A stretch of 64,000 nucleotides of DNA from assembly GCF_035083965.1 (NCBI RefSeq), contig NC_089740.1, positions 9,172,596 through 9,236,595 on the forward strand. The letters run 5' to 3'. A program made the translations under genes and the position numbers. Source of the stretch: Branchiostoma lanceolatum (Eukaryota). Below are positions 16,186 through 61,992 of the stretch, one piece after another. The stretch's first letter is position 1; every line of letters starts with the position of its first letter. Under the pieces are notes generated by a model. The model did no database searches. It was not told the origin of the DNA and worked only from the letters and a program-made list of their open reading frames with translations.

Positions 16186-16224
16186 GTATAAAGTCTCAGT
16201 TGAATACAATACTTGATGATACCC

Positions 16225-18520: not shown

Positions 18521-18539
18521 GTAAGTTCGTTAAGCCCCC

Positions 18540-31186: not shown

Positions 31187-32818
31187 TTAAAAGGTCCCAT
31201 CCATATCTTTTCTCCTATTGTGAGTGTTCATGTGGCGGTTCAGTTCAAAGGTGCGCTTAAAGCCAGCCTGGCAGAGTTCGCACTTGAAGGGCCGTTCCTC
31301 CGTGTGGCGAAACAGGTTGTGCTGCGACAGGTTACTCTTCGTTTTGAATGAGATCTGACACATCTCGCACCGAAACGGCTTGTCACTGATCTCCCGCTGT
31401 TCAGTAAAAGACGTACCGGCAATTACAACCGATGGGGGCGTGTCGGATGAACCCTGTGCTGCCGTGAAGTTTAGGCTGTGGGAAACGAGATGGCGGTCGA
31501 GCTCGTAGCTGCGGCGGAAAGCTGCCGGGCAGATGTGGCACTTGAAGGGCTGCATGCAGTTGTGTACGGAGAGTCGATGCTGCTGTAGAGAGCTCTGGCT
31601 GGAAAACAGGACTCCGCATTCGTCACACAGAACAATGGTGCCCTGCATCACATCTGCTTGGACGTCTGCGCTTGCTCCCAGTGTGGTCTGCAAAAGGACA
31701 TGTTGGTTTCCAACAAAGCGGTCATGTGATGCCAAACTTCTAGAACCCTCACGTGACACCTCTCCTGTTACATCAGGCCGCCGGTTGTCTTCTGACCCCT
31801 GGCCTTCAACCTCATCCAAGATGGCAGTGCTGTCTGATGTGCAAGAGAGCTCCAGTGACCCCATTGTGTCCTCCTGTGAGGTCGTTCTGTTGCCATGGTG
31901 ACCTTGGTTGCTATGGCCATCCTCTACATCAGAGGACAACCTTGCAGAAGGTGACCCACTGCTTGTCTTGAATCGTTTTGTTCTGAGGGAAGCTTGTTGG
32001 CTTCCTTCTTCTGAGTTCCGATTCTCTTGCGATCTGAACGTGGACGTGAATGCCCCATCGTTTTCTTGAGAGCAGGATGTGACTTCATTGTCTTCGTTTT
32101 CTATCTTCACCACAACGGCAGACCTGACGCCATCCCTGTCTCTTTGAGAGAGCCTGTTGGGATTAAAGGTCAACTCCCTGTTGTCATTAGAACATGGACT
32201 CCACTCTGATGTTTCACGTATGACAGCCTGTCTGCTAGGCTCAGGCGAGAAGCTCATAGGAATCCTTGGTGCATTTTTCGTGCCGGATTGACCGGAACTT
32301 GGACGGGATTCGCTCTGTGTAGACTGTCGGTTCTCGGATACGTTCAAGGTAGATGATGTGGCTGCTTTTGCTGTGCATTCTTGTAGCATTGTGCTTAACA
32401 CCGGGTAGCCAAGCTTGCACCTACTGTCGTCTTGCGACCCACTAGAAGGGGACACAGACCCCAAAGGGCTTGACACGCTCGAGCTCTGCCTGTTACCAAC
32501 GTCGCTACTTGTCGAGTGAACGTTTCTCGCTCCGCTAACCTCGGGCGGTGGGCGCAGGGCTGCAGCCAGAAACGTACTGCAGTTGTTGAGTATGTCCATC
32601 ACTTGGAGAAAGTTTGCCGCGTTGTTTGTCTCCAGGGCGTTCTCAATGGTGAGGTTGAGCTCGGAGGTGTACACGAAGTCTAACACGACAGCTACACCCT
32701 GTGGAGTCAGGCCTGGTAGTGTGATCTTGTCGGTTGTATTGTTGGAGAGGACAGATGCGAAGTAGCCGGAGGAGCCACAGAGTATACACTTGTGAGCCCA
32801 GAAGACATAGTCCTGTAC
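31187..32818 (-). CDS. BTB/POZ zinc-finger protein, large terminal exon (rest of BTB domain, Ser-rich linker, 4 C2H2 fingers, stop)
   Basis: Acceptor caatcattcag|GTA, phase 0. Translates VQDYVFWAHKCILCGSSGYFASVLSNNTTDKITLPGLTPQGVAVVLDFVYTSELNLTIENALETNNAANFLQVMDILNN.., which continues the BTB fold. Four C2H2 fingers are at the C-terminus: CDECGVLFSSQSSLQQHRLSVH, FKCHICPAAFRRSYELDRHLVSH, FRCEMCQISFKTKSNLSQHNLFRH, FKCELCQAGFKRTFELNRHMNTH. Contains ORF 31187-32686. Confidence 0.7.
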   Translation of the reverse strand, partial: VQDYVFWAHKCILCGSSGYFASVLSNNTTDKITLPGLTPQGVAVVLDFVYTSELNLTIENALETNNAANFLQVMDILNNCSTFLAAALRPPPEVSGARNVHSTSSDVGNRQSSSVSSPLGSVSPSSGSQDDSRCKLGYPVLSTMLQECTAKAATSSTLNVSENRQSTQSESRPSSGQSGTKNAPRIPMSFSPEPSRQAVIRETSEWSPCSNDNRELTFNPNRLSQRDRDGVRSAVVVKIENEDNEVTSCSQENDGAFTSTFRSQENRNSEEGSQQASLRTKRFKTSSGSPSARLSSDVEDGHSNQGHHGNRTTSQEDTMGSLELSCTSDSTAILDEVEGQGSEDNRRPDVTGEVSREGSRSLASHDRFVGNQHVLLQTTLGASADVQADVMQGTIVLCDECGVLFSSQSSLQQHRLSVHNCMQPFKCHICPAAFRRSYELDRHLVSHSLNFTAAQGSSDTPPSVVIAGTSFTEQREISDKPFRCEMCQISFKTKSNLSQHNLFRHTEERPFKCELCQAGFKRTFELNRHMNTHNRRKDMDGTF

Positions 32819-42440: not shown

Positions 42441-43242
42441 ATTAACCTTGCCCTGCTTTCATAACTCGCTTGGTTCAAGAGCTAACGCTGATCGGTATGC
42501 TTATCGCAATGTTTATGTTATATTTTCAGATATAACGTCAGCCATCATGATTATGATAGTGGTTCGAAAAGTTATCCCAACACATGTAGTGTTCTTGTAT
42601 TCTGTGCAACATCCCCATTAACTTGATATGGGGCGTATCATCATCCTTCAAGCCAAGCGACATTTTTCGCACATCATTTAGATAGCCAGGGCTGTGTGAC
42701 AGCCTGCATGAACTATGGAAAGTCATCTATATAGAATAAAGTTAAATCCTGAATAATGAAATTGTCTGGCAAAGGCTTTTCTTTGTATTCATTTATTTGA
42801 AAACGAAATTTGATAGCTGCACAAATGCCGTCATAAGTGTTTGAAAGAACACCATCAGACTTCTCCTAGCATAATGCGTAGGTAAGTTGATCTACACGGC
42901 TCAATATAACAATAGAACCCTTAGATGAACCTCTTCATGGATACACATGGTTTTCTACGATCAGGTTATACAGCTAGGACTAGATTGATACTATGCTCTC
43001 TGTACACAGCCAATAACATTTACCTTCCAAAGTTTCTGTAATTCTTCCACAACCTTCCTCAAGGCAAAACTGAGTGGATCTACTGATAGGTGCAGAGGGA
43101 CTACCGAAACGATGGCAAGTGATATGTATTGGTCGTGTACTAAAATATTAATATCCATGCAGTGATCTACCAAACGGAAAGCACTATTCACAGATGTAGG
43201 ACTATTAATGAGTTGTAAGTAGCTAATGGTTCAACTACATGT

Positions 43243-43598
43243 TCAAGCGATGAGGGAGTATGCAATCATCATGGGTATCGCGAGAAACAGCGAGAAGAGG
43301 GACGAGATTTGAGAAGCGCCCCCTGTATATCCGTTCACCTCTGCCTCTGTGGTGTTGTGGCAGAAGTACCACATGTTCTCCACGTACTTTGTGAACTCTG
43401 AACCCTCGGGGTAGCCGTTGTTCCTGACCAGCTGTTTGAAGAAAACGGATGAAGCCTTCGGGTAGCGGGTGCGGGTGGGGTCGTTGAAGTCGACGTAGTG
43501 GAGACCGAATCGCTCGGAGTAGCCGGACAGCCACTCGAAGTTGTCCAGCAGGGACCAGGCGGTGTAGGCCTTCACCTTGACGTTGTCCACGTTGCTAG
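43243..43598 (-). CDS. GH1 copy 1 exon 10 (terminal; GPI-anchor-like tail; includes stop)
   Basis: Acceptor cactaccag|CT. Translates [118 protein letters not shown] then stop at 43243-43245. Lies in ORF 43243-43590. Confidence 0.85.
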
Positions 43599-44093
43599 CT
43601 GGTAGTGTAATGCAAAAACAACAATAGTTCCTTTGAAACTTTTTGATAATACTACATGCGGCAGACGGTACATTAGAAATAAAGTTTGGGAGTTAAAATA
43701 GTATATTATATCAACACAGCCAAAGCAAAACGTGCGAAATGTCTAAAAGAATCAAATTTTGCATGCATGTAGTTTAATGTATTCCAAAAAAATTATCTAA
43801 ATCTCTATTAAGATGCTTTCTGATGGTCAAAAGGAAACTCCCGCATAGATAAGATTTCAAAATATTTCAAATGATTTCATAGATGCCACTTATTGAAGAT
43901 GTAACACAATGCATTTGTACTTGTATCGAAGTTGCAGTATAAAGTATGTACATGCATCCTAATAGACCAATGATATGACACATGGTATTACAGGGCTTTC
44001 GTAAAGCATTTGTTCTATTCACAGTTGCTTTCTCTCTAAACCTAGCTCCTCAGATGATTACACTTAATTGAAAAGACGACTACGAACATGTAC

Positions 44094-44179
44094 CTTTCAT
44101 GACTTCATTGGTGTACATCATGTAGTAGCAGATCCTCTCCATATCCATCATGATGGCTGGGTCCTGGTCATGGTCAGAC
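44094..44179 (-). CDS. GH1 copy 1 exon 9
   Basis: Acceptor cactacag|G and donor GAAAG|gtacat. Translates RSDHDQDPAIMMDMERICYYMMYTNEVMK. Confidence 0.75.
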
Positions 44180-44649
44180 CTGTAGTGTGTCGTTGAAAAC
44201 ATACATTAAAACTCAATACGTATATCATCAAAGTCTGATTATAATGCAGTGTAAGGTATCAGGTTAAGGAATTGGCTCATGATTGGGGCTGCTTATACAT
44301 GTATGTATATATGTGATAGATTTTAGGAGGCGAAGAGTATCATTTCCATCCATATGGTTCTGGATCAACTTCTTGTCTACGCCGAATAACAGTTGCTCAA
44401 ACGTCTTGTCAATTTGGACGAACAATGCAAATTTGATTGCCTACCCTCCTTGAAGAGCTTGTACGGAAAGGCGTGCCCAAAGTAGAAACTGTCATAACAG
44501 GATACGTGGCATACTTAATTCAAAATTGTACCAAATACCAACATACAAATTCTGGCATGATACATCCACCACGGAGGTAAAAAGCTAAAGATTGAATTTC
44601 ACAATATGAAGGCTCCAAGTAGATCCTTGTTTTACGAAGAGCTGCTCAC

Positions 44650-44818
44650 CTTCCGTTTTCAGTGACGTAGATTTCCGGATCTCCGTACTCTTCCTTGATA
44701 AAGCCGAGGAGATTCCGGATTCCCCACGGAACGACGTACAGCCAGCTGGAGGCAGCACGCGGCCAGTCAGGCGCATGCCCAGTCCCCACATCTTTGTCTG
44801 TGTCGTAGTTGGGGTTTT
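44650..44818 (-). CDS. GH1 copy 1 exon 8 (nucleophile Glu in YVTENG)
   Basis: Acceptor tttgcacag|AA and donor GGAAG|gtgagc. Translates ENPNYDTDKDVGTGHAPDWPRAASSWLYVVPWGIRNLLGFIKEEYGDPEIYVTENG. Lies in ORF 44646-44840. Confidence 0.85.
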
Positions 44819-45108
44819 CTGTGCAAATGAAAAATGACAATCAAGAATCATGTTCACATTGAATATTGAAGGTTTTGTCCACACATAGCCTAGCCTAGGT
44901 GTTATCCTATTTCAGAGGAGCGAACTCTAACTGAAATAGACTGGCTTCTCACAACCCAGCGCCAACCTTAAATGGGAGTAGTGTAAAAGGTACTAAATGA
45001 ATTACTGGCTGGCTTAATGGCTCTCAACTGACAGGCCGACATGGTCTACGGGCTGAATGGATGAGCAGGCGAGCAGATGTATACCTCGATGACGCGTTTT
45101 TGACCTAC

Positions 45109-45268
45109 CTATTGGAGAACAGCAGGCGTCGGTCACCTCCACTGTGGTGTAGTGGTTCAGTCCGAAGAAGTCTCCGGTGCCGCTGATGGAGAGCTTCTGT
45201 TCCGGGGTGAACTCCGGGAGACGGGACGTGGTCCTCCCCTCCTCCTGAGCTTTCCTCGCCATCGTTGT
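45109..45268 (-). CDS. GH1 copy 1 exon 7
   Basis: Acceptor gcacgacatag|ACA and donor ATAG|gtaggt. Translates [53 protein letters not shown]. Lies in ORF 45014-45262. Confidence 0.8.
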
Positions 45269-45489
45269 CTATGTCGTGCAAAAAACACATTTGCCATAAA
45301 TACATTGTATTGAATGCTATTTGCAAGTAACATGAAAAAGACGAACAAATAACGAAGAACAGAAGCATCAACCACGAGAAAATAATGAGGCCGCTGCTTT
45401 AGACCGTTTTGGCAAAGACTAAAGCAGCCAACGTTTAAGATTTTAATATACAGGTACAAATTATTACAATTGATGAGAACATGTCGTAC

Positions 45490-45630
45490 CTTCATGACTT
45501 CCGGATAGTCGCCGTTCTTGTAGATCGGATGAGCGAACCAGCCCAGGAAGAACTGGACGTATCGGAGCGCTGCGTCAGCATCAGCCGGAGTCTTGGGTGT
45601 TCCCCAGTCACAGTTCAGGGTGATACCAAC
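45490..45630 (-). CDS. GH1 copy 1 exon 6
   Basis: Acceptor ctcttaag|GTT and donor ATGAAG|gtacga. Translates [47 protein letters not shown] (compare [28 protein letters not shown]). Lies within ORF 45157-46002. Confidence 0.85.
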
Positions 45631-45699
45631 CTTAAGAGGAAAACAGCACATACGTTCAGATAGTACAAGCGCATACAGAAAGCCACGAAGCAGTGTTCT

Positions 45700-45910
45700 G
45701 TGGGACATCTCTCTCTCTCTATCTCTCCCTCTCCCTCTCTCTCTCTCGCTCCCTCTCTCTCCCTCTCTTTCTCTCTTTTCTCTCTCCTCTCTCTTGCTTC
45801 TCTCTCTCTCGCTTCTCTCTCTCTCGCTTCTCTCTCTCTCGCTTCTCTCTCTCTCGCTTCTCTCTCGCTTCTCTCTCGCTTCTCTCTCTTTTCTCCCTCT
45901 CTTTCTCACT
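45700..45910. repeat. (CT)n / (CGCTTCTCTCTCTCT)n compound microsatellite in GH1 copy 1 intron 6
   Basis: ctctctctctatctctccctctccc...cgcttctctctctctcgcttctctctctct... It generates the spurious [10 protein letters not shown] and LSLSLS ORFs on both strands. Confidence 0.85.
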
Positions 45911-46075
45911 GTCTTCTCATCTCTCTTTTGATATATTAGATAGATAAACAGAGAGACTGGCATAGATAGCTTTGAATTTGGAGAGTAATAGACAAGGTAC
46001 AATATCTCCTTCTATGTTCACCAACAACCCCTATTCTATCAAAGGTGTGATATGTAGACAGCGATGGTATTTTAC

Positions 46076-46203
46076 CTGTCCACCCTGTGCGGCTCTGAAC
46101 TCGTCGTCGTATATGTGGTAGGCCTTGGCGTGAGACAGGATGATGTTATGGGCTGCTATGTACTGTCCTTCGGCCATGTCGTTATGCTGGGGGGCAAAGT
46201 TAC
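46076..46203 (-). CDS. GH1 copy 1 exon 5
   Basis: Acceptor gttctag|GT and donor GGACAG|gtaaaa. Translates GNFAPQHNDMAEGQYIAAHNIILSHAKAYHIYDDEFRAAQGGQ. Lies in ORF 46031-46225. Confidence 0.85.
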
Positions 46204-46324
46204 CTAGAACGACACAGCAAGACATTCAATAAAACACGTCAATCTACAAAGGTCTTTTCTAGAGTTCCTTAGTAGAAAATTATCTTTTTTTCATAAATAA
46301 AATATTGACACGACAGGATATCAT

Positions 46325-46409
46325 GACATTGCAGGTAGATACAAGTAGATAGATGGATAGATAGATAGATAGATAGATAGATAGACAGACAGATAGATAG
46401 ATAGATAGG

Positions 46410-46485
<76 letters not shown>

Positions 46486-46525
46486 CGGAGAGATAGACGG
46501 AGAGATAGACGGAGAAATAGACGGA
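46325..46525. repeat. (GATA)n microsatellite, about 45 units, GH1 copy 1 intron 4 (absent from copy 2)
   Basis: agatagatagatagatagacagacagatagatag... It generates the spurious [11 protein letters not shown] ORFs. Confidence 0.85.
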
Positions 46526-46582
46526 GAAATAATGGATACAATGCGATGTTATACGCATCTGAAAATAGATGAAAGTACCCAC

Positions 46583-46748
46583 CAATGCCATATCCGAGCC
46601 AGGCCGTGATCCAGGGTTCGTTGAATGTGATCCAGTACTTGACGCGATCCCCGAAGTTCTGGTAACAGAAGCGAGCGTAGTCTCCGAATAGATCGTGGAT
46701 CACGGTAGTGTTGGTGGTGTGGTTGTTGAGGAAGCCTCCGTACCTGTC
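46583..46748 (-). CDS. GH1 copy 1 exon 4 (acid/base catalytic Glu in TFNEP)
   Basis: Acceptor ttccag|GAC and donor ATTG|gtgggt. Translates [55 protein letters not shown]. Lies in ORF 46269-46703. Confidence 0.85.
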
Positions 46749-47388
46749 CTGGAATGGTGAAAATATAGATAATCAAATACAAGATGGTTCAATGACAGTG
46801 CGTGCCTTTAGAGAGTTTCTTTCTTGCAAGTAAAGCATCCGGGGTAATTCTGCAAATAAAAGTATGAAAAACGAAAATAGTGCAAATGCCTAAAATCGAT
46901 CGCTGTTGATCTTCAAAACCCTCCTCAGTCGGGCTGAATGCGCTCGGCAAACCCTCCCGCATCAGCCCTGCTCCTCTCCTGTCTGTTTCTGGCTCCTGGT
47001 GATGTTGCTCACACTTGTTCTAATTGATTAGTGAGCTAGCGTTTAAGGCACAGACAGCCGTTATTTTGTTCTGAACTAAAAGTAGCGATGTCAGACGTAA
47101 CCTGATTGGCTGATAGATTCTCAACGATATTTAAGCTTTCCGGTTTTCCAAGATAAGCTTCTGGCAATCCTCTGATGATGTTTGGTGGTGACGTCACCAG
47201 GAGCCAGAAACAGGCCAGAAAAGAGCATGGCTGATGTGGGAGGGTTTGCCGAGCGCATTCGGTGCTACTGAGGAGGGTAATCTTCAATCAAGTAAAGTTA
47301 GAACTTGATCTCTTTTAGATATTCTACTATCCCCTCAATTATTACTTACTATGGAATATTAATATGGATGGGTTTAAGATCAAAGTAC

Positions 47389-47516
47389 CTGTAGAACCTG
47401 CGGGAGATCCCAGTGGAACAGTGTCACCATCGGTTGGATGTCGTTGACTATCAACTCGTCGATGAGGGCGTTGTAGTAGCGGACGCCATCTTGGTTCACT
47501 CCATCTTGTTGCTCAC
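47389..47516 (-). CDS. GH1 copy 1 exon 3
   Basis: Acceptor ctcacag|GT and donor CAG|gtactt. Translates [43 protein letters not shown]. Lies in ORF 47380-47700. Confidence 0.85.
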
Positions 47517-48026
47517 CTGTGAGATGAAGTAAGTAAATGAGAAATTCTTGCCATTTGTGATAGGTCTTTGATTGAGACAACGTGACACATTGTGTATTTT
47601 GAGATAATATGTGACGGAAACAATGTATAAAACATAAAAAGTCAGGTCTACATAGCTGAGAAAGATACGGGAAAGCCATGTTGGTGACCATTGACCTCAC
47701 TCTAAAGCGTATGCGATAAAGATTGTAATCTAACTATTTTGGCTTAATAACTTCCACTCGTTAGGTTGGTGGAGAGCTATCAGAATCAAGTGTCCACCCC
47801 AACTTAATTAATCAATACTGCACAATTTTACCCTCACTCAGACTAGATATGTTTCCGTATGTTTGCGATTATGATGTTGTTGATGAAGACTATAGCTGTT
47901 GTGAGTCATTGAATGGCCGTTCATAAGTTGCTGTAGAGATTTATTACCAGCCTATTCGAATCATTAACTTTGTCCAAACTTTAGTGCCTATTTTTCGCCA
48001 CGCAGCATGCTATAGGGGAATCTTAC

Positions 48027-48140
48027 CTGTTGGGAATAGCCTGGGCCATGAGATCGAGAAGCGGTAATACTTCAGCCCCATCTGCTTCATCAGTGCTACA
48101 TCCTCCGGGTACTTGTGGTAGCTGTCACAGGCAACATCCC
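48027..48140 (-). CDS. GH1 copy 1 exon 2
   Basis: Acceptor tcttctccag|GG and donor ACAG|gtaaga. Translates [38 protein letters not shown]. Confidence 0.8.
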
Positions 48141-50785
48141 CTGGAGAAGACACACAATACCATTCATATTAGAAAGAGTGTCTACACTAAGCTGGTAAGA
48201 TATGGCTGGCCAACCTGGGATATTAATAAACACTGTGATGATGAGAATAGGAAACCTGAATTGTTGCTCTACATATGATTGTTAGGGGTTCTTCACAGCA
48301 CGGCGCTGCTGACATGGTGAGCTTTATGAGGTACGTTAAAAGGTTTGTATGTTTCATCTTCTAAGATTGGTCCAAGAGTTCAATTTTAGAAAATAAACTT
48401 ATTAAGTGTTAGTACATGTACAATGTAGGATTTTTGCTTTCGAAATCAGTAAAACTTTTCAAAAGTAAAGCAAGATCAAAGCTTAGCAATAAATGCGTAA
48501 CGTCACTCTCGTTGATACATGATTCAGAACCAAATGCGTACTTTTAAAAAGATGATAAATGACCTCAACACCGGTACCCTACACTTACACCCACTGCGTA
48601 CAGTATATACAGCGACTGAGATGATTCTTATATGTTTAGTTTCTTAGTTAAATCATCCAAACATTTTCATGCTAGCTCACGACTTGTACATTACACATTG
48701 CACGTCCAGCTTATCTTATCACGGATTAAAAATTGCGTAAAATCAATCAAGATGGCGTCATATCAAGGGATTTTGGACTCTAGTTTAAACTCTATTCAGT
48801 TCAAATTTGTTACCCAGTCAGTAGAAGGCTTGTCTTCCATGACAGGCAACATCGCCTAGTGTAAGACAACAACAACTATTATATACGTAACAGGCAACAT
48901 TCTTGTACGCTTAGTTTCTGAGTTTCATTTCCCTCAAATTCTTCATGATAGTTCACTCAATGCGCATAAGTCTAAGTTATCTGATCAGGGATAAATTATT
49001 GCGTAAAACCAACCAAGATGGCGTCATCCCGAAGGATTTTGAACTTTGGATACTAATTCAAACTCAAGTCAGGTAAAAATTCGTTGCCCGGCCAGTAGAG
49101 TGCTTGTCTTCTGGGAGGGGGGCACGAAGACGTGTAAACAATGGCATCGCAGTAACAACACGTTCCTAATCAGGTCTGTCAAACGGCGTCGTTTATCTCA
49201 AAGGAACTCGTGTTTAACTCCATCATTAATGCGTTTATTAACAAGGGGGCGTGTCCTTGGCACGTTAGCAGCTAAAGGTTGTATAATAGGGTCATTGTGC
49301 AAGTGTACACATGATAGCGGGGACGCGGACCTTGACACCGTATGACACGTTCCCAGGAAACTTTATACAGAAGTGTAGCTGTGTAATTGACACATATTCA
49401 TGTATTTCACTGCGAAAGGTGTGAGTAATTGGTCTTTATCTGTTTAAGCCAAACATCCTCAAAGCCTATTTACCCGACTCTCGATAAGTGGGTTGTTTTT
49501 CACTAATGTAAACACAAGCCGCTCCGCGCAGGTTTAAAATCCTTTATGCAACCCTACGTGGTTTAATCGTACCGCGATTCATCGATCTCAGCTGTTTATT
49601 GTGTCATATCTCTTGTACAAAATGCACGTGGCAATGCACATGTTCAAATTCGGGTCTGTCGACCATTGGAATCATTGATTTTGGTGATTACGTAAGTCAT
49701 TCAGCATCATTCAGCATGATGTAACATTGCTCTCTCACTAGACCATGAAAAAGCTTTGTCATTTCAACTCAGCACTTTCCTTTGTTCTCAAAATTATCGT
49801 GGACGTGTCACATTGTTCCCTGGTTGAAGTCTTTACTGGACATACTGTAAATGCAGAAATGTGCCGGGATTACATTTGGCGGGGGGGGGGGCGGTAGAAA
49901 TCTTCGGTGGTTTTGAGTTCATGCTTGAAAGAATAGTATCGCTACAGTAACACAATGGAACGGCTTTTCGCAGTGGGTTTAAGTTCGCGATAAAGAGTTC
50001 ACCGCAAAAAACAGCGAAAATAAAACCATGGCGAACATTTCTGCTTTTACAGTATATGCTTCTCCATTTCTCTCAGCACGTTTCCAGTGGTATAGTAGGT
50101 GTGTTGACACGTATGCAACGTTCCATCTACAACAAGGCCGGCAATGAACCCGTCAAACTGTCAAGATTGGAGCTTTTTCACAGCTAGCCTTTCAAGAATA
50201 AACTGCTGCTGAAAAGAACTACAGCCAATGCTAACTGTTGTACGATATAACAAAGGGACAGGGCGAGGGGGAGGGGGTGAGAAAAGATTGACAGAGGTGG
50301 AAAGAGAAAACGGGTTCATAGGTGCTCATTGTTCTTAAACAGCTTTTTAAAACATATGACTTAAGCTAGAGGTGTCTTGCTTGATCTCCTACTTTTACCG
50401 TCTCTGAATCTAGTTTGGTTAAACATCCTACAAACAGGTAAACTTTCCATAGCTTTCTCAAGGCCGTATGTTGCCAATCCACTCTCTTTTACATGGTATT
50501 GGAAGGCGGAGCCCAGCCTGGAATCCAGACCTATTATGATAGCTCCCGAGTCTCGGGAGCTCTAATAGGTCTGGATTCCAGGCTAGGCGGAGCCCATCCG
50601 TCTCGTTCCATCACCTTCTACCTCCTCAACCGAAGTCAGGTACCCATTGTTACCCCTAGGTGGAGTCAGGTACCCATTTACACCTGAGGTTTACATGTAA
50701 GTCATGTTAAGTGCCTTTCTCATTGACAATTGTGCATTGACAACATACGATAACTTTCAAAACAGTGGACGAAGAAGACTTTTAC

Positions 50786-51023
50786 CTGTATCTTGGTTGT
50801 TAACTCTGCCCTGGTGTGCGAGTGTGTCCCAGATGGACGGACCTTTGTCACTGACGTTCCAGGCGCCTTCTATCTGGTACGCTGCCGTTGCCGAACTCCA
50901 GATGAAGTCCTGCGGAAATGTTCCCTTCAGTAGAGCATCTCTCTCCTTGTCGTATGCTCCATTAACGGGAGCAAAGGCGAGGGTAACCCCGAGAAGGAAG
51001 TTAAAGAACTTTCTTGGTGCCAT
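50786..51023 (-). CDS. GH1 (lactase-like beta-glycosidase) copy 1 exon 1
   Basis: ATG at 51023 (plus-strand cat 51021-51023). Translates [22 protein letters not shown]|[57 protein letters not shown], a signal peptide plus the GH1 N-terminal motif. Donor ACAG|gtaaaa. Lies in ORF 50757-51128. Confidence 0.8.
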
Positions 51024-52581
51024 GATAGAACCGTCGGCTGCCAGGGATAAGGACAAATAAGCTCTAGTCTGATACCCAACGGCCCAAATAGGCAAACGCT
51101 GGGGCCACTTTGTGGTTTTCATCAACACTGATAATTCATAGCATTTTATTTATGAAAAATCGTTTTTCAGAATCACTTACTTCCTTTGCATATGGTCACG
51201 GTCCATATGTCCAATGAAAGCTCAACTAACTTCCCAAAATTCAGAAATTTCATTTGTCCAAAAAAACTTTCATAGACGATGGATACATTTTCTGACATAC
51301 GTGATATCTCCATCCACAGCCTCGAATGCCACTTGTCCAATAGTGTCCTCAACTAGTTTTAAATTTATTATCTGACAGTACAAAGGTTATCGGGATTTGA
51401 AGGTTTGTTGGCTCACTGTTCAAACCGCGACGTTTGGTGACATCACGCCGTCCTCCCACTTTGTAAACACAGTGTCACTGCACAAATATAAAGGCTTACT
51501 TATTATTTGATGTGGTTAAAGCAATCTACTTTTGATAGCTTTGTATTCAAACCGACGTGCTGGCATTTGAAGAGTTGCAAAGAGGGGGGTATGGCCAATT
51601 GCCAACAGAGTTCGTCATTGCTAGGTGATTGACGTCAGCAGCCTGTGTGCATGTTCAACGTCTATCCAACTAGGACTACTTTGGACACTCATGGGGACAG
51701 CAATGTCTTTGAACTGTATTTGAACAACAGTTCAAACACACACCTTGGCACAATTCTTTACCACAGTCATCATAGATCATGATCGCATGTCGTCAAACAG
51801 CCGGAAAAAAGGTAACAGACCGCGCATTGGTCTTTGTGGAAGAGCTGATCTTTCTCCCCTATAGGTTGAACATTTGGTTCTACCCGCGCTTTGTTTGAAG
51901 AAGAATGGCGCTTTGAACAACCCGGACGACATAGGGTAGTGCTACGTTATCATTCAGAAAAGTGTACATGGTAAAATGTTGCAAGACAAGTGGTTGATAA
52001 GATCATGAAAGTTCTTTGCTGGTTAATTGGGCAACAAAAGCAATTATATAAGCCTCTGCAGTGTTAGATATCCATGTCCACCGCATAAGTACAAAATAGA
52101 ATTGCAATGAAAACATTTCAAGGCGCTTGAATTAAGTACAGCTACTAACACCATCTACGTCGATAATCCACCTGCTCAATCGATGACGCAACAGACCACT
52201 CCGAATACCGCGAGAAACATCTATATAGAATAGAGTACAACACTGAATAATGGAATTGTCAGACCAATGATTTTTCTATATTCATTTATTTGAAAAAAAA
52301 GTAATAGCTGCACAAATGCCGTCATTAGTGTTTAAAAAACACCATCAAGACTCGTCCTAGCATAAGGCGTAGGTAAGTTGATCTACATGGCTCAATATAA
52401 CAAATAGAACAATCAATCTCCGATCAGTCTTAATGCGGATGTTTCTCTCTCTGTCAGTAATTCGTATTGGTTATGTACTAAAATCTTAATACCCATGAAG
52501 TGATCTACCAAAACGTAAAGCACTATTCACAAATGCAGGACTATGAACGAGTTGTAAGTACCTAATGGTTTAACTACATGT

Positions 52582-52937
52582 TCAAGCGATTAGGGGGTAT
52601 GCAATCATCATGGGTATCGCGAGAAACAGCGAGAACAGGGACGAGATTTGAGAAGCGCCCCCTGTATACCCGTTCACCTCTGCCTCTGTGGTGTTGTGGC
52701 AGAAGTACCACATGTTCTCCACGTACTTGGTGAACTCTGAACCCTCGGGGTAGCCGTTGTTCCTGACCAGCTGTTTGAAGAAGACGGAAGAAGCCTTCGG
52801 GTAGCGGGTGCGGGTGGGGTCGTTGAAGTTGACGTAGTGGAGACCGAATCGCTCGGAGTAGCCGGACAGCCACTCGAAGTTGTCCAGCAGGGACCAGGCA
52901 GTGTAGGCCTTCACTTTGACGCTGTCCAGGTTACTAG
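52582..52937 (-). CDS. GH1 copy 2 exon 10 (terminal; GPI-anchor-like tail; includes stop)
   Basis: Translates [118 protein letters not shown] then stop. Lies in ORF 52582-52962. Confidence 0.85.
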
Positions 52938-53499
52938 CTGGTAGTGGAATGAAAAACAACAATCATGATGTTAGGCATATTGTATAGGAAGTTGAATAGT
53001 GCAGATCTGGTAGTCAAGGGAAGTTCCTGCACCATTTTTAGAATTTCGTCGGCAGTGCATTGTTTCGAATTCGAAGATTTGGTAAAAAGTGTCCAACTGA
53101 CCAAAAAAAGGACCTATTGTGACATGGATTTTCGTAGCTTGAGGAGGTCTATCAAAAACGTACTCAGTTGGTGTGCCTGTTTCCAAATCTACCAGAAAGG
53201 TCCCAAAAAGATGGCAAGAAGTTGAGTTTGCTCGAGTCCAGAGTTGTCCCACACGTGTGACAAGTATACTCAATATAATACAGTTTGCACAGGTTAAGGA
53301 TAAGGGCGTCTCAGTGTTTGTTATCAATGGATTAATAAGACCAGATAAAGCAAAAGAATTAACAAAAAAAACCTTTCACAGGGATATGAGGTCTCTTAAT
53401 ATTACGCTATCTGTTGTAACTCATTGGTTTCTTTTCAAATATTCCCTGTTAGAGAAACAGAATGATGAAAAAGACATCTGCTTAACTACGAACATGTAC

Positions 53500-53585
53500 C
53501 TTTCATGACCTCATTGGTGTACATCATGTAGTAGCAGATCCTCTCCATGTCCATCATGATGGCTGGGTCCTGGTCATGGTCAGAC
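53500..53585 (-). CDS. GH1 copy 2 exon 9
   Basis: Translates RSDHDQDPAIMMDMERICYYMMYTNEVMK. Lies in ORF 53486-53668. Acceptor tgctag|G and donor GAAAG|gtacat. Confidence 0.8.
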
Positions 53586-53979
53586 CTAGCATATCGTTGA
53601 AAACATGGAATAAGAGTTATATAAGAATAGCATTTGGTATTAGAGCCTGTAGAGTATGCTATAGTCAAGGGACTGACAGCAATCTGTGTTGGCTACGGGC
53701 TCAACAAATCTTCTGTACTTTTAAAAGCTTGATGCTACATTTTTTTTTCCATTGATATGCCCCCTCCTTGCCAAAATGAAAGATCAGAATTTCGAATTAC
53801 AGAATTCTCCGAAGTATTTATTGGATATTCATGATATGATATACAAAATGTACAGCCTTTTAGGCCCATCAAAACATACTAACATACACATACTACAACA
53901 ATACATGAAGGAAAATGCTATATGAATGTCAACGAATGAAATTTGCAAGCAATTACTTGTGGTTAGAAAAGCTGCTCAC

Positions 53980-54148
53980 CTTCCGTTTTCAGTGACGTAG
54001 ATTTCCGGATCTCCGTACTCTTCCTTGATCCAGCCGAGGAGATTCCGGATTCCCCACGGAACGACGTACAGCCAGCTGGAGGCGGCTCGGGGCCAGTCAG
54101 GCGCATGCCCAGTCCCTATATCCTTGTCCGAGTCGTAGTTGGGGTTTT
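53980..54148 (-). CDS. GH1 copy 2 exon 8 (YVTENG)
   Basis: Acceptor tttacacag|AA and donor GGAAG|gtgagc. Nearly identical to copy 1 exon 8 (..DSDKDIGTGHAPDWPRAASSWLYVVPWGIRNLLGWIKEEYGDPEIYVTENG). Confidence 0.8.
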
Positions 54149-54578
54149 CTGTGTAAAGGAAAAATAAGAATCAAGAATCATGTCCACATTGAATATTGAA
54201 GGTCTTATCCACACATAGCCGATCATGGCCTCCCTAAATTCTCCATACCATAGTTGGAAATTAGTCGTGAGAAAGGTCAGCTTTGGTTGCGAGCTGGCCG
54301 GCGAGGTTGCTTTAAATCTTTGAAAGTCGTCTGTGCCAGCCGCTTATAAATATTAACAAATCCAAGTCTATGAGAGGAGCGAACTCGAACTAGAATAGAC
54401 TGGCTACTCGCAACCCAGCGCCAGACTTAGATGGAAGTAGTGAAAAGTTGTGAGAACGTCCTGAATGTGTCACTCGCCGGCTTTATGGCTCTCAACTGAC
54501 AGGCCGACATGGCCGACAGGCTGAAAGGACATGAGCAGGCGAGCAGATGTATATCTCGGTGACACGTTTTTGACCTAC

Positions 54579-54738
54579 CTATTGGAGTACAGCAGGTGTC
54601 GGTCACCTCCACTGTGGTGTAGTGGTTCAGTCCGAAGAAGTCTCCGGTGCCGCTGATGTAGGCCTTCTGTTCCGGGGTGAACTCCGGGAGACGGGACGTG
54701 GTCCTCCCCTCCTCCTGAGCTTTCCTCGTCATCGTTGT
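54579..54738 (-). CDS. GH1 copy 2 exon 7
   Basis: Translates [53 protein letters not shown]. Lies in ORF 54427-54732. Acceptor ttcctacatag and donor ATAG|gtaggt. Confidence 0.8.
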
Positions 54739-55074
54739 CTATGTAGGAAAAATACGCGCTTTTACTGTACCCTGTCATTTCTTATGTTTACCCTTAAGGA
54801 AGGGAAACGTATTATGGTTACATGGTGACAGTAGACGCCCTGTTGTGTTTGATTTCATCATGTAGCACGTGCATGCTTGTCACCATATATTTGTAATCAA
54901 ATGAATGGATTTGATAAGAATAAACTGTAGCGTAGTCTGTTTTGCCGGTGTCTCCTGTGACAGATTCTCCAGCGAACCAACATCGGAGGCATCAACAGCG
55001 GCAGACCGTCTTCAAAGACGAAAGTAGCCTACGATTAAGATCTTACAAGAAAAATTGATGAGAACGTGTCGTAC

Positions 55075-55215
55075 CTTCATCACTTCCGGATAGTCGCCGT
55101 TCTTGAAGATCGGGTGGGCGAACCAGCCCATGGAGAACTGGATATAACGGATCGCTGCGTCAGCATCGCCCGGAGTCTTGGGCGTACCCCAGTCACAGTT
55201 GAGGGTGATGCCAAC
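55075..55215 (-). CDS. GH1 copy 2 exon 6
   Basis: Acceptor ctctatag|GTT and donor GATGAAG|gtacga. Orthologous to copy 1 exon 6 ([47 protein letters not shown]-like). 141 nt. Confidence 0.75.
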
Positions 55216-55289
55216 CTATAGAGTAAAACAGAACATTAGATCAAATAGTTCGATGCACTAACAGAAAGCCACGAAGCATTGTTTTGTGG

Positions 55290-55316
55290 GCCGTCTCTCT
55301 CTCTCTCTCTCTCTCT

Positions 55317-55364
<48 letters not shown>

Positions 55365-55410
55365 ATTTCTCTCTCTTTTTGCCCTCTCTTTCTCGCTATC
55401 TTTTCTCTCT
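55290..55410. repeat. (CT)n microsatellite in GH1 copy 2 intron 6
   Basis: ctctctctctctctctctctagctctctctctctctctct... Confidence 0.85.
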
Positions 55411-55587
55411 CTCTCCCTCACTCCTTTGAGGAATGATAGATATACACGAGAGACTGGTATTAATAGTCTTGAATTTGAGGAGTCACAGACAAGGTACAGT
55501 AGTTCTGCCTCGTGTATTGCAAACGGCGACAATAACCATCCTATATTTTTACGTTGCCATGTTATGTAGACAGTGAGGATATTTCAC

Positions 55588-55715
55588 CTGTCCATTCTGT
55601 GCGGCTCTGAACTCGTCGTCATAGATATGGTAGGCCTTGGCGTGGGACAGGATGATGTTGTGGGCTGCTTTGTACTGTCCTTCGGCCGGCTCGTTATGCT
55701 GGGGGGCAAAGTTAC
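55588..55715 (-). CDS. GH1 copy 2 exon 5
   Basis: Translates GNFAPQHNEPAEGQYKAAHNIILSHAKAYHIYDDEFRAAQNGQ. Lies in ORF 55549-55755. Acceptor cttgccag and donor GGACAG|gtgaaa. Confidence 0.85.
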
Positions 55716-56207
55716 CTGGCAAGAAACAGAAAGACTTGCTATAAAACATGTTCAACTACGGAAGTCCTCCCCTATTATAAAATTGATATTAAGCCAATGT
55801 GAGGAACATTGATGCGAAAAGATATCATGACATCAAAAGCCGATAGAAAATTAGATAATACTGTAGGGAGATTGCTAATAAAAGTATAAGTGCCTTTTTA
55901 ATATATACAGTTCTTCACATGTAAGGGTAATGCATGACATCTACAAAAAGAAAGGCTATTCGATCTTCATTGAAACCGCATTGGCAAAGCTCTACCGGTC
56001 TAATGCATGTAAACGATGCCCAGCTATTGCCAACATTTTCAGATCATCATCATCATCGGTCCTCCCCTTGACCAAGGAGGTTTTATATAAAACTTTACCT
56101 TAACGAGGTCCAGCAAGCGAAGTTTACCTTCCAGAACTGCTTGTCGTTCATTGCAGAGTTTTTGTAGTAACACAGAAGATAACCCACCCTAAGATGAAAG
56201 TACCCAC

Positions 56208-56373
56208 CAACGCCATATCCGAGCCAGGACGTGATCCAGGGTTCGTTGAATGTGATCCAGTACTTGACGCGATCCCCAAAGTTCTGGTAACAGAAGCGAG
56301 CGTAGTCTCCGAACAGATCGTGGATCACGGTAGTGTTGGTGGTGTGGTTGTTGAGGAAGCCTCCGTACCTGTC
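56208..56373 (-). CDS. GH1 copy 2 exon 4 (TFNEP)
   Basis: Translates [55 protein letters not shown]. Lies in ORF 56095-56328. Acceptor ctttacag and donor GTTG|gtgggt. Confidence 0.85.
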
Positions 56374-57209
56374 CTGTAAAGGTGAAAATATGAATAATCA
56401 AATAAAAGTCGGTTCAATGACAGTACGTGTCTTTAGGGAGTTTCTTTCCTGTAAATGAAGCATCGGTGTGATACTGCCAATAAAAGTATTTTAAATGTGC
56501 TTTCTAAGATCAAGGAGGTTTTCCTTGGCAAGATGCAACAGTGTTCGAATTAACACGGTGGTTTCGCACGGGTGCCAGGTTCACCGTCATCTGTATGGTG
56601 TATGTGCTGATTGTCTGCAATGATTGTTTGAGCCTTCTTAAAGTATAATAGTAGTGAACTCATGATTACAAACGTATGCCTTCTGCCAAGCTTTTCGAGA
56701 CATCTTCAGATATGACTGGATGCAAAACCAAAAAGTTAGTATGCCTAACATTGATCGCTGTTGATCTTCAAAACTTCGTCGGTCGCGCTGAATGCGCTCA
56801 GCAAACCCTCCATCAGCTCTGTTCTTGTCGGCCTTTTTGCTCCTGGCGACATTACTTATAGTTGCTCATGAATGATTAATGAGCTAGCCGTATTTTGTTC
56901 TGAACCAAAAGTAGCGATGTAAGACGTAACCTGATTGGCTGATAGCATCCCAGCGACCTTTGCGTTTTTCAAGATAAGCTTCTGCTAATCCTCTGATTGG
57001 CTGAACGCTGTTTGGCTTCTGATGTCGCCAGCTGCAGGAGCCAGAAAAAATTGGCCGGAGAAGAGCAGGGCTGATGCGGAAGGGTTTGCCGAGCGCATTC
57101 AGCCCAGCTGGGGAGGGTGATCTTCAAGAATATAAACTTAGAACTTGATTTCTTTTAGATAGTCTACTATCCCCTCAATTTATTGTGGATGGGTTCAAGA
57201 TCAAAGTAC

Positions 57210-57337
57210 CTGTAGAATCTGCGGAAGGTCCCAGTGGAACAGTGTGACCATCGGTTGGATGTCATTGGCTATCAACTCGTTGATAAGGGCGTTGTAGTAG
57301 CGGACGCCATCTTGGTTCACGCCATCTTGTTGCTCAC
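57210..57337 (-). CDS. GH1 copy 2 exon 3
   Basis: Translates [43 protein letters not shown]. Lies in ORF 57201-57434. Acceptor ctcacag and donor CAG|gtactt. Confidence 0.85.
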
Positions 57338-57754
57338 CTGTGAGATGAAGTAGTAAGTAATAAAAAAACGTGATACAGTAGGTAATTTTTAAAGATATTA
57401 TGTGACAAGGTATATATAAGGTACACATAGACAAAGATACGAGGAAGCCACGTTGGTGGCATGTGACCTCACTCTAAAGCGATGGATATATCTAATCTAA
57501 CTAAATCGAGCTAGCTGTCAGAAGCTAGTGTCCACCCCACCTCTATCAATCAATACTGCGCCAGTTTACCCTCACTCATACCGGATAAGATATGGTATGC
57601 TTGCGGCTGCAATGTTGTTGATGAAAACTAAGCTGCTGTGAGTCGTTGAATGACTATCGAAATGGTGTAAACTACTGTAGAGATAACCAGCATATTCTAG
57701 TCATTGACTATATGCCTAAACTCCAGTGCCTTTTGATCGCCATGTAGCATGCTA

Positions 57755-57904
<150 letters not shown>

Positions 57905-58959
57905 TTAGATTGCAGAGATCATAAAGTACTGCCGCCCAAGCTTAAGCTGGCAAGATATGGCTGTTAAAACAAATTATGAGAATACAAGGGTTGAAATGTT
58001 GCCCTATATATGGCTGTAAGGGTCCCCCCCCCCCCCAGATATCACACGCCGCAATACTCATGGTGATATCATGAGGTATACGCTAAAAGGTCTGTGTGTT
58101 TTCGTCTTCTAAGACTGGACCTTGAATTTGATTTTAGAAAATAAACGTGTTAAGTTTTAGAACACGTACAATGTAAGCTTACATTGATATAGAACTAAAT
58201 GCGTACTTTTATAAGAATGATAAATGAAGTCAATACCCTGCACTGATCACACCCACTGCGTACAGTGTATATAGCGACTATTATTATATGCTTAGTTTCC
58301 TACTTTAATCATAACAAAATTCATGATAGCTCAGGACTTTTACACTGCACGCCACCCACAAGTCCAGCTTATCTTACGTAAGATTACGTAAAATCAATCA
58401 AGATGACGTCATGCCGAGGGTTTTTGAACTTTGGATTCTAGTTTAAACTCTGGTCAGGTAAAAAGTCATTACCCGGTCAGTAAAGTGCTTGTCTTTTGGG
58501 AGGGGGGGGGGGGGGGCACGAAGTCGTGTTAACAATGGCATCGCAGTAACAACACGTTCCTAATCAGGTCTGTCGATCAAACGGCGTCGTTTATCTCAAA
58601 AGGACTCGTGTTTAATTCCATCATTAATGCGTTTATTAACAAGGGGGCGTGTCCTTGGCACGTTAGCAGCTAAAGGTTGTATAATAGGGTCATTGTGCAA
58701 GTGTACACATGATAGCGGGGACGCGGACCTTGACACCGTATGACACGTTTTCAAGAAACTTTAACGAATGCACAGAAGTGTAGTAATTGGCACGTATTCA
58801 TGTATTTCACTGCAAAAGGTGTAAGTAATTAGTTTTTATCTGTTAAAGCCAAACATTCTCAAAGCCTATTTACCCGACTCTGGATAAGTGGGTTGTTTTT
58901 CACTAATGTAAGCAATAACCGCTCCGCGCAGGTTTAAAATCCGCTTAAAAGTGGCTCAA

Positions 58960-59102
58960 TCGTACCGCGATACTAGCCTGGGTGCCAGCCTTTTTAGCTT
59001 CCGTACGCTACACAAGCTCCGCTCCTCGAGCTTGGGTAGCGCAGTGGAGCTAGGGTAGCGGACGGAAGCTAAAAAGGCTGGCACTCAGGCTACCGCGATA
59101 CC
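58960..59102. repeat. Near-perfect palindrome/foldback insertion (about 65 bp arms) in GH1 copy 2 intron 1, absent at the homologous site of copy 1
   Basis: cgcgatactagcctgggtgccagcctttttagcttccgtacgcta...tagcggacggaagctaaaaaggctggcactcaggctaccgcgata. The copy 1 homologous region around 49540-49600 lacks it. Confidence 0.6.
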
Positions 59103-60271
59103 ACTTTGCTGCTTTTGCATATTGTGCAATATTTCCTTTACAAAATGCACGTGGCAATGCACATTCAGAAATTCGGGTCATCCTTCAAAAAAGGACCTTT
59201 AGAATCATTGATTTTGGTGATTACGTAAGCCATGGCTATGAGCATGATGTAACATTGCTCTCTCACTAGACCATGAAAAAGCTTTGTCATTTCAACTCAG
59301 CACTTTCCTTTGTTCTCAAAATCATCATGAACGTACCACACTGTTCCCTCATTGAAGTATATACGGGGCATACTACAAATGAAGAAATGTTAACCGGGAT
59401 TACATTTCGCGGTTGGGAGAAAATCTTCAGTGGTTTTGGGTTCGCGTTTGAAACAACTGTGGCGCTACAGTAACACAATGGAATGGCTTTTCGTGGTGGA
59501 TTTAAGTTCGCGGTAAAGAGTTCATCGCGAAAACGTGAAACCACAGCGAACATTTCTCCATTTACAGTATATGCTTCTCCATTTCTGTCAGTCCGTTCCC
59601 AGTGGTACAGTAGGTGTGTCGGCACGAAGGTAACGTTATATCTACAATGAGGCTGACAATAAAACAATAAAACTGCCAAGACTGTCGCCTTTTCACAGCT
59701 AGCCTTTCAAGATCAGGGTTAAACGGTTGATAGAAGGGCAACCATCCTGAAACAGATCTCTAACCGTGCTAGCCAGAGAGGGAAATGGAGGAAATTTGCA
59801 GTCACCTGTGCAAAAGCAGCAAACCGATGACAACGATGATGAAAATGACTTCAGCCAAAATATTAATGCTAACTGGTTTATAGAATGGTGCTCATTGTTC
59901 TTTAAAAAGCTTAAAACATAAGAAATAAGTCTGTGGTGTCTTGTTATATCTCCTACTTTCACCGTCTCTGAATCAAGTCTAGTCAAACATCCTGACCAGA
60001 CTATGTTCAGAGGTATAGGTCCCATGACCTTCTTTAAAAGGTTGGAGGCTGTGGATCCACACTCTTTGACGTGGTATCGGAAGGGGAGCCCATCCCTACG
60101 TCTTCCACCGCCTTAACTCACCCAACCGAAGTCAGGTACTTATTTTACCCCTGGACGGAGTCAGGTAACCATTTACACATGAGGCTGAAGTCATGTTAAG
60201 TGCCTTTCTCATTGACAATTGTGCAACAACATACAGTAACTTTCAAAACGGAGGACGAAGAAGACTTTTAC

Positions 60272-60509
60272 CTGTATCTTGGTTGTAAACTCTGCCCTGA
60301 TGTGCGAGTGTGTCCCAGACGGACGGACCTTTGTCACTGACGTTCCAGGCGCCTTCTATCTGGTACGCAGCCGTTGCCGAACTCCAGATGAAATCTTGCG
60401 GAAATGTTCCCTTCAGTAGAGCATCTCTCTCCTTGTCGTACGCCCCATTAATGGGAGTTAAGGCGAGGGTGACCCCTAGAAGTAAGCTAAAGACCTTTCT
60501 TGGCTCCAT
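60272..60509 (-). CDS. GH1 copy 2 exon 1
   Basis: ATG at 60509 (plus-strand cat 60507-60509). Translates [79 protein letters not shown]. Donor ACAG|gtaaaa. Lies in ORF 60243-60563. Confidence 0.8.
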
Positions 60510-61639: not shown

Positions 61640-61992
61640 TCAATCGATAAAGCAACAGACCACTCCCAATATCGCGAGAAACAGCGAGAACGGGGACGAG
61701 ATTTGAGAAGCGCCCCCTGTATATCCGTTCACCTCTGCCTCTGTGGTGTTGTGGCAGAAGTACCACATGTTCTCCACGTACTTGGTGAACTCTGAACCCT
61801 CGGGGTAGCCGTTGTTCCTGACCAGCTGTTTGTAGAAGACGGAGGAAGCCTTCGGGTAGCGGGTGCGGTCGGGGTCGTTGAAGTCGACATAGTAAAGGCC
61901 GAAACGCACAGTGTAGCCGGGTAGCCACTCATACCCGTCCATGAGAGACCAGGCGGTGAAGGCCTTCACCTTAACATTGTCCAGGTTGTAAG
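61640..61992 (-). CDS. GH1 copy 3 exon 10 (terminal; hydrophobic tail; includes stop)
   Basis: Acceptor tctgccag|CT. Translates [117 protein letters not shown] then stop. Lies in ORF 61640-61969. Confidence 0.75.

Follow-up and report, generated by a model that had tools for sequence, protein, structure and literature searches.

INTRODUCTION

The closest known architecture to the enzymes considered here is that of LCTL (also called KLPH or gamma-Klotho), a vertebrate protein in which a signal peptide, a single GH1 domain and a hydrophobic C-terminus are combined. The same combination is encoded by three tandem genes that lie, the third only in part, in 64,000 nucleotides of the Branchiostoma lanceolatum genome (NCBI RefSeq assembly GCF_035083965.1, contig NC_089740.1, forward-strand positions 9,172,596 to 9,236,595), a stretch referred to throughout as the window. 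LCTL is ranked closest because it shares with the amphioxus proteins a stalk helix, following ..NGFP.., with a conserved Trp and Cys. The membrane helix of LCTL comprises 22 residues (IVVPTVCTLCILLSAVLLMFLL) and is almost invariant from lamprey to mammals; after EIVVPTVCTLCILLSAVLLMFLL the protein continues for just four, mostly basic or polar, residues (RRQS, RKRN, RRRN or RGRL; QTQS or QSQS in two carnivores). The amphioxus tails, in contrast, are shorter, less hydrophobic and fast-evolving, lack basic residues and have a GGAS cluster in front.

A second relative, LPH, is a brush-border enzyme (PMC10824415). It shares with the amphioxus proteins a GH1 domain carrying the two catalytic Glu motifs, as well as attachment to the membrane at the C-terminus, which in amphioxus is predicted. 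However, LPH carries several GH1 repeats in one 1927-aa chain whereas each amphioxus open reading frame (ORF) has a single domain, and its strong helix is followed by 12-23 more residues forming a basic cytoplasmic tail (P0175, P0111, P0129), of which the amphioxus proteins have no counterpart. Single-domain GH1 proteins of invertebrates (amphioxus paralogues, sea urchins, crinoids, acorn worms and oysters) have the same overall architecture and type of C-terminus as the three copies, the hydrophobic run extending to the last residue or close to it. Tail sequences from different lineages resist alignment; KDEL or KEEL forms the end of some paralogues, and a cytoplasmic tail occurs in one hemichordate protein.

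Several digestive ectoenzymes are held at the cell surface by a glycosylphosphatidylinositol (GPI) anchor; these include mammalian intestinal alkaline phosphatase, trehalase and membrane dipeptidase, and the GH13 alpha-glucosidases of the mosquito midgut. The amphioxus GH1 proteins resemble them in proposed membrane attachment, proposed role as surface hydrolases and signal anatomy, but the catalytic folds are unrelated, and GPI attachment is experimentally established for those enzymes whereas it is predicted for amphioxus GH1. A GPI signal consists of a small residue at the attachment (omega) site, any residue other than Pro at omega+1, a small residue at omega+2, a hydrophilic spacer of 8-12 residues and 15-20 hydrophobic residues, with ~10 unstructured residues upstream (PMC10491789). 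No description of a GPI-anchored animal GH1 enzyme, and no study of amphioxus, LCTL or Klotho dealing with the anchor, was found in the literature searched, a search of incomplete coverage. On present evidence the three amphioxus copies are probably, though by no means securely, GPI-anchored surface beta-glycosidases.

RESULTS

C-terminal tails of the three GH1 proteins

The three GH1 genes lie in tandem on the minus strand, and no further copy was found in the 64-kb window by blastn between the repeat units combined with tblastn of retrieved homologues. Their stop codons are at 43243 (copy 1), 52582 (copy 2) and 61640 (copy 3), and each tail is the 3' end of its gene's last exon. The tails quoted in an earlier account made from the letters and ORF translations (the sequence-only reading) are exact minus-strand translations of 43246-43330, 52585-52660 and 61643-61715, each directly followed by TGA. 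Copy 1 ends in ..AYSLIA, copy 2 in ..AYPLIA and copy 3, whose tail translates as GASQISSPFSLFLAILGVVCCFID, in ..VVCCFID.

The sequence-only reading had described these tails as canonical GPI signals. The candidate omega cluster, spacer and hydrophobic segment are listed in Table 1. GGASQ (within TGGAS) is invariant among the five amphioxus tails examined, and either G-G-A or G-A-S fits the pattern of a small omega residue, an omega+1 other than Pro and a small omega+2. The hydrophobic run to the C-terminus has 18 residues in copies 1 and 2, with zero residues after it, and 16-17 residues in copy 3, followed by Asp; Arg and Lys are absent from all three. The claim of a hydrophobic run reaching the C-terminus with no cytoplasmic residues stands for copies 1 and 2 and needs correction for copy 3, with its charged end. 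None of the three copies matches a vertebrate-type helix, in which a strongly hydrophobic stretch of 20 or more residues leads into a basic cytoplasmic end, as it does in the LCTL and LPH comparators.

The last 19 residues of copy 1 have a mean Kyte-Doolittle (KD) hydropathy of 2.01, as against only 0.96 for the best 19-mer inside the mature enzyme, and an uncharged 19-mer with a mean KD of at least 1.9 turns up in 1.5e-5 of random draws from the composition of the mature protein. Given this rarity and the contrast with the rest of the enzyme, the tail is not a chance feature.

Tests of the proposed GPI signal

A deliberately strict rule test was applied which calls for an omega residue among G/A/S/N/D/C, an omega+2 residue among G/A/S, a spacer of 3-10 residues and a tail of at least 11 residues with a mean KD of at least 1.6 and an uncharged core. 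Copies 1-3 pass, with G as omega and 23-25 residues removed. Comparison with orthologous C-termini, which the sequence-only reading had proposed, gave the same answer: the orthologue in a B. floridae x B. japonicum model passes as well, again with omega = G. The test was passed by 6/10 tails of established GPI proteins (PLAP, PrP, FOLR1 and CD73 among them), by 0/3 LPH-type membrane anchors and by 0/4 soluble or KDEL-type homologues.

In 2012, Galian and co-workers reportedly found that GPI signals require marginal hydrophobicity. On the Hessa scale the summed value of the best 19-mer is +0.3 to +2.3 kcal/mol in the three copies (+0.9 in copy 1), +0.25 to +7.3 kcal/mol in the established GPI signals and -1.3 to -4.5 kcal/mol in LPH helices. 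The hydrophobicity of the three amphioxus tails fits the requirement for marginal hydrophobicity.

Copy 1 was modelled with AlphaFold2 (AF2) using a 22-sequence alignment (predicted template-modelling score, pTM, 0.85). A helix is predicted at residues 511-525, against the domain, and the mean predicted local distance difference test score (pLDDT) is 90 at residues 511-520 and 62 at 521-530. Directly after it, residues 528-550 have pLDDT<50 and bracket the omega cluster, so that the model presents the linker holding the omega region as probably disordered. Both amphioxus paralogues and vertebrate LCTL (..SWHxKAxETCS..) have the Trp and Cys of the stalk helix as well, at a similar spacing. This helix, which follows the GH1 barrel, is possibly a conserved stalk, and its Cys may be disulfide-bonded.

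Several points weigh against a GPI signal. The C-terminal residue of copy 3 is a charged Asp. The strictly polar spacer has only 4-5 residues (QISS or SQISS) against the 8-12 of the published pattern (PMC10491789), and a spacer of 8 is reached only if the LFS of the hydrophobic run is counted in, which leaves 15 hydrophobic residues. With ISS counted, conversely, 21 uncharged residues could just span a membrane. Finally, the rule test is home-made. The reading as a GPI signal fits the N-terminal signal peptide, omega cluster, tail, lack of basic stop-transfer residues, linker, hydrophobicity and evolution, and it fits the spacer if part of the hydrophobic run is counted in.

The main alternative is an uncleaved, membrane-spanning C-terminus giving a type I protein with essentially no cytoplasmic tail, a minimal form of the LCTL arrangement. 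The copies are colinear with LCTL (GH1 domain, stalk helix with Cys, linker, hydrophobic C-terminus), LCTL itself has just four residues after its helix, the tail segment holds 21 uncharged residues, and one hemichordate homologue (P0149) does have a clear helix, followed by 14-15 residues with a basic REKK cluster, a true cytoplasmic tail. On the other side, no basic residue follows the amphioxus segment, which itself contains Pro, Ser and Tyr; its Hessa sum lies on the opposite side of zero from those of the LPH anchors; it evolves as fast as the signal peptide (see below) whereas the LCTL helix is nearly invariant; and the invariant GGAS stands at the right distance for an omega site. An uncleaved anchor is accordingly judged unlikely, albeit the chief competitor to GPI attachment.

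Evolution of the tail

Identity to the B. floridae x B. japonicum orthologue varies along the protein, being 64% in the signal peptide, 91.5% in mature GH1, 92.6% in the stalk, 87.5% in the omega region and 63% in the hydrophobic tail. The tail therefore evolves like the signal peptide. This pattern in the aligned sequences suggests that both ends of the protein behave like removable targeting signals, the tail being constrained only in composition, as would be expected if it is removed. In an exhaustive search of a representative set with the last exon, similarity seldom ran past query residue ~80, and the tail sequence is thus not conserved outside amphioxus.

A GPI-type ending on a lactase-like glycosidase had been called an unusual architecture, which is not borne out among invertebrates. 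In a panel of 15 single-domain deuterostome homologues, the most hydrophobic 19-mer is followed by no more than 10 residues in 14, and the rule test is passed by 10. The panel includes amphioxus paralogues (P0119, P0127, P0128, P0131, P0133, P0180), acorn worms (P0138, P0150), crinoids (P0145, P0148, P0151) and sea urchins (P0146, P0152, P0154), and oyster LCTL-like homologues have a similar C-terminal ending. The contrast that had been drawn with the cytoplasmic tails of vertebrate LPH, LCTL and Klotho is sound as regards basic stop-transfer residues and helix strength, but it is narrower than claimed, since only four residues follow the helix of LCTL.

Two paralogues, P0136 (B. lanceolatum) and P0143 (B. 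floridae), keep the stalk (..MWRKCRGS..) and carry KEEL or KDEL in place of the hydrophobic tail. By their sequence these endings are of the endoplasmic reticulum (ER)-retrieval type, and it follows that the GH1 family uses different C-terminal sorting signals. They lend some weight to a further alternative in which the tail serves neither for GPI attachment nor for stable anchoring; it would instead be an element of retention or quality control, or its clipping would free a soluble luminal enzyme. Nevertheless, paralogues and species alike conserve the omega-like cluster and the length of the tail, endings of this type recur across phyla, and no data point specifically to such a mechanism, which is regarded as improbable.

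Transcript ends and the fused RefSeq model

Evidence from annotated transcripts places the ends of the genes at the stops given above. All 20 BraLan3 isoforms that were retrieved, with accessions in the range CAH1251842-CAH1251862, terminate precisely at one of the three stops, and one of the BraLan3 proteins, CAH1251855.1 (P0170), ends identically to copy 3. An added downstream exon, which would have displaced the terminus of copy 1 from 43243, was found in none of the annotated transcript models examined. Within the final ~50 codons of copies 1 and 2, a donor-like score of at least 7/9 is reached by a single site, A/CAA^GTACGT (^, splice point or junction), at 43388 and 52727. It was considered as a route to a hidden exon and rejected, being upstream of the stalk and used by no model.

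RefSeq, on the other hand, joins copies 3, 2 and 1 into one protein of 1625 aa (XP_066270991.1, 'lactase/phlorizin hydrolase-like') that covers 43243-64000 of the window, with junction sites near 61636-61650/60567 and 52730/50940. By manual reading, the copy 3-to-2 junction (..GVVCC^GPLGIREV..) can be obtained only by omitting 15 nt, TTTATCGATTGAGCA, that include an in-frame TGA, and past this point the model translates the 5' untranslated region and signal peptide of copy 2 in mid-protein. The copy 2-to-1 junction (PEGSE^DALLKG) needs a donor, AGA^GTTCAC, that agrees with the consensus at 3/9 positions by manual count, under the 7/9 cut-off. Read at the level of sequence, the fused model looks like an annotation artefact. 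Since the merger looks artificial at both junctions, we treat the locus as three genes, every one with a signal peptide and a tail of its own.

Separately, a donor-like CAG^GTGGAT stands 4 nt after the copy 3 stop, and many BraLan3 isoforms begin with a first exon of the copy 3 type yet finish in the tail of copy 1 or copy 2. These features suggest that transcripts read through, or are spliced between copies, along the array.

The fusion, if real, would mean that the stops are not true termini and that the locus makes one multi-domain, LPH-like protein from which the internal tails and signal peptides are spliced out. Besides the RefSeq model, the donor-like site and the mixed isoforms, this could draw on the lack of AATAAA/ATTAAA from copy 3 to copy 2 and on the frequency of two-domain GH1 proteins in molluscs, tunicates and fishes. 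It is opposed by both junctions as just described and by the intact signal peptide and tail kept in each copy. Furthermore, the fused model still ends in the copy 1 tail, so that the question of a GPI signal would remain. A single multi-domain product is very improbable.

Rearrangement of the copy 3 tail

The identity of copy 3 with copies 1 and 2 holds as far as ..SLFLAI, beyond which divergence is complete. Its last nine residues, LGVVCCFID*, are not homologous to the endings of copies 1 and 2, and are still hydrophobic. They are homologous to a relic ORF, MFLAVFGVVCCVID*, which follows the stop of copy 2 at a distance of ~360 bp, as an alignment of copy 3 61540-61720 with copy 2 52080-52260 shows; blastn likewise pairs copy 3 61563-61683 with copy 2 52100-52219. 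The relic was not found downstream of copy 1. A repeat of ~14-15 bp, TGTTTCTCGCG[A/G]TA, opens the relic ORF and recurs inside the tail exons. With the repeat at both sites, the difference between the copies amounts to a ~395 bp deletion or insertion at the repeat, whereby the 9-10 final codons have been swapped between copies; the corresponding stretch in copy 3 is 61643-61690 (minus strand).

Of intergenic reading positions, only ~0.7% would yield a hydrophobic ending like that of copy 3. In the B. floridae x B. japonicum model, the upstream domain finishes in ..LFLAMLLAICFFFN.., which by eye resembles the copy-3-type ending, and both types of tail may be old. The relic was also considered as a spliced alternative 3' exon, with an acceptor-like TATATAG^ATG joined to an in-frame GAG^GTGAAC. 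The product, ..TTEAE-MFLAVFGVVCCVID, would have no omega region, and the ORF is missing downstream of copy 1; this route is unsupported.

AATAAA and ATTAAA are absent between the copy 3 stop and copy 2 (60600-61639, motif scan). The polyadenylation signal of copy 3 was removed by the same rearrangement as the tail swap, and its loss may explain the read-through and the chimeric transcript models.

Gene models, catalytic domain and signal peptides

A GC content of ~41% and split genes give the region a eukaryotic character. Rebuilt models of copies 1 and 2 each have their own start codon, signal peptide and stop codon, with one GH1 domain per ORF (Table 1). Residues 31-561 of copy 1 are identical to residues 1095-1625 of XP_066270991.1 (P0173), and the first 511 residues of copy 2 are identical to domain 2 of the same protein; in a full-length protein search, B. 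lanceolatum proteins matched at 94% identity. Pfam GH1 (PF00232) covers residues 33-505 of copy 1 (profile positions 2-452/453, E=1.5e-159) with a score of 531.8 bits against a cut-off of 22.6. TFNEP (acid/base E204, NEP motif) and YVTENG (nucleophile E412, ENG motif) are both present in copies 1 and 2, and N203, E204, P205, E412, N413 and G414 show no variation among the 22 aligned sequences.

The sequence-only reading had ascribed one and the same signal peptide to all three copies. Inspection of copies 1 and 2 does reveal a basic n-region, a hydrophobic core and small -3/-1 residues, and residues 1-22 of copy 1 have pLDDT <50 in the AF2 model, but the two visible signal peptides differ from each other in sequence. 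Exon 1 of copy 3 lies beyond position 64000 and reads M..ETGTFVNYFLLVISLVIIPVNG according to P0173.

A loop with two overlapping N-glycosylation sequons, NNHTTNTT, occurs at residues ~168-175 (exon 4) of copies 1 and 2 and is common to all three B. lanceolatum copies, copy 3 being read from P0173. In the B. floridae x B. japonicum model it is slightly varied (NNLTTNST, NNHTTNST). The introns of copies 1 and 2 contain long simple-sequence tracts (45700-45950, 46300-46550 and 55280-55450). In ORF lists these appear as runs of SLSLSL, RERERE and YLSIYLSI, and their length is not the same in the two copies.

Table 1. Positions of features in the 64,000-nucleotide window (strand: -, minus; CDS, coding sequence)
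Feature	Position	Strand	Remarks
Copy 1 GH1 gene, CDS span	43243-51023	-	10 exons, 561 aa, ATG 51023, GT-AG at all introns
Copy 1 exons 1-5	51023-50786, 48140-48027, 47516-47389, 46748-46583, 46203-46076	-	rebuilt model
Copy 1 exons 6-10	45630-45490, 45268-45109, 44818-44650, 44179-44094, 43598-43243	-	rebuilt model
Copy 1 N-terminal signal peptide	50958-51023	-	probable cleavage after VNG; V at -3, G at -1
Copy 1 stalk helix, residues 511-525	43399-43443	-	between GH1 barrel and linker; AF2 prediction
Copy 1 candidate omega cluster, G536-G537-A538-S539	43312-43323	-	rule test accepts G536 (GGA) or G537 (GAS)
Copy 1 short polar spacer, Q540-I-S-S543	43300-43311	-	inside pLDDT<50 segment 528-550
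Copy 1 C-terminal hydrophobic segment, 18 aa	43246-43299	-	stop codon 43245-43243 directly after
AATAAA, copy 1	42792-42797	-	446 nt after stop (motif scan)
Copy 2 GH1 gene, CDS span	52582-60509	-	10 exons, 561 aa, ATG 60509, GT-AG at all introns
Copy 2 last exon	52937-52582	-	rebuilt model, tail translation verified
Copy 2 GGAS cluster	52651-52662	-	verified tail
Copy 2 hydrophobic segment	52585-52638	-	verified tail
AATAAA, copy 2	52285-52290	-	292 nt after stop (motif scan)
Relic copy-3-type tail ORF	52176-52220	-	downstream of copy 2 stop
Copy 3 GH1 gene, 3' part	61640-64000	-	exons 7-10 only in window; exon peptides located
Copy 3 GGAS cluster	61706-61717	-	verified tail
Copy 3 remaining tail	61643-61705	-	verified tail
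NNHTTNTT loop	~46700-46725 (copy 1), ~56325-56350 (copy 2)	-	sequence reading
BTB-zinc-finger exon	31187-32686	-	Pfam hits

Neighbouring genes

Beside the GH1 array lies a BTB-zinc-finger gene, of which a 499-aa open exon contains the end of the BTB domain and C2H2 zinc fingers (Pfam). Two plus-strand stretches, ~15150-19400 and ~5400-8600, contain ORF fragments that resemble exons of deoxyhypusine synthase and, further upstream of these fragments, exons with immunoglobulin-like and transmembrane-like segments (..IIGIIVGIVAAVALLAAIIVILLQNRKRRNK).

DISCUSSION

Direct observations on the three amphioxus copies cover how the genes are built, the GH1 domain and its two catalytic Glu motifs, the anatomy of the tail and the pattern of its conservation. 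From them we infer cleavage of the tail with attachment of GPI, a location at the cell surface and a role in digestion. Each gene would give rise to a catalytically competent single-domain GH1 beta-glycosidase that enters the ER by way of a cleavable N-terminal signal peptide. The predicted GPI signal would be made up of a probably disordered linker (residues ~526-535), an omega residue (G536 or G537), the short polar spacer and a marginally hydrophobic tail of 15-18 residues. GPI transamidase would then remove the last 23-25 residues and join the enzyme to the GPI lipid, and the enzyme would come to lie on the extracellular side of the plasma membrane; the analogy of brush-border hydrolases makes the apical membrane of gut or hepatic-caecum cells the probable site.

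Switches between GPI and transmembrane anchoring are well known in other families, and for that reason the result is not very surprising. The proteins of all three copies are already public, and a GPI-type tail is a modest, unproven variation on a known enzyme family; as many invertebrate relatives share the ending, the amphioxus proteins are not outliers. For users of amphioxus GH1 or 'LCT' annotations the practical consequence is that the locus should be treated as three separate genes, which the RefSeq model merges.

A broader and distinctly tentative proposal, which we consider doubtful at present, is that GPI anchoring was ancestral for surface GH1 beta-glycosidases in deuterostomes, perhaps in bilaterians, and that the helices of LCTL, LPH and Klotho were vertebrate innovations; the amphioxus cluster would also show tail exchange in progress at the ~14-15 bp repeat, with two unrelated ends both kept hydrophobic. 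If the three copies are indeed GPI-anchored, GH1 beta-glycosidases would join the surface hydrolases held by GPI. They would also furnish a clear-cut case in which orthologous enzymes changed over between lipid anchor and membrane helix when vertebrates arose from invertebrates, with a bearing on how LCTL, LPH and the Klotho co-receptors gained their membrane helices. Were the helix truly a vertebrate innovation, it could have enabled helix-mediated partnerships, such as that of Klotho with FGF receptors.

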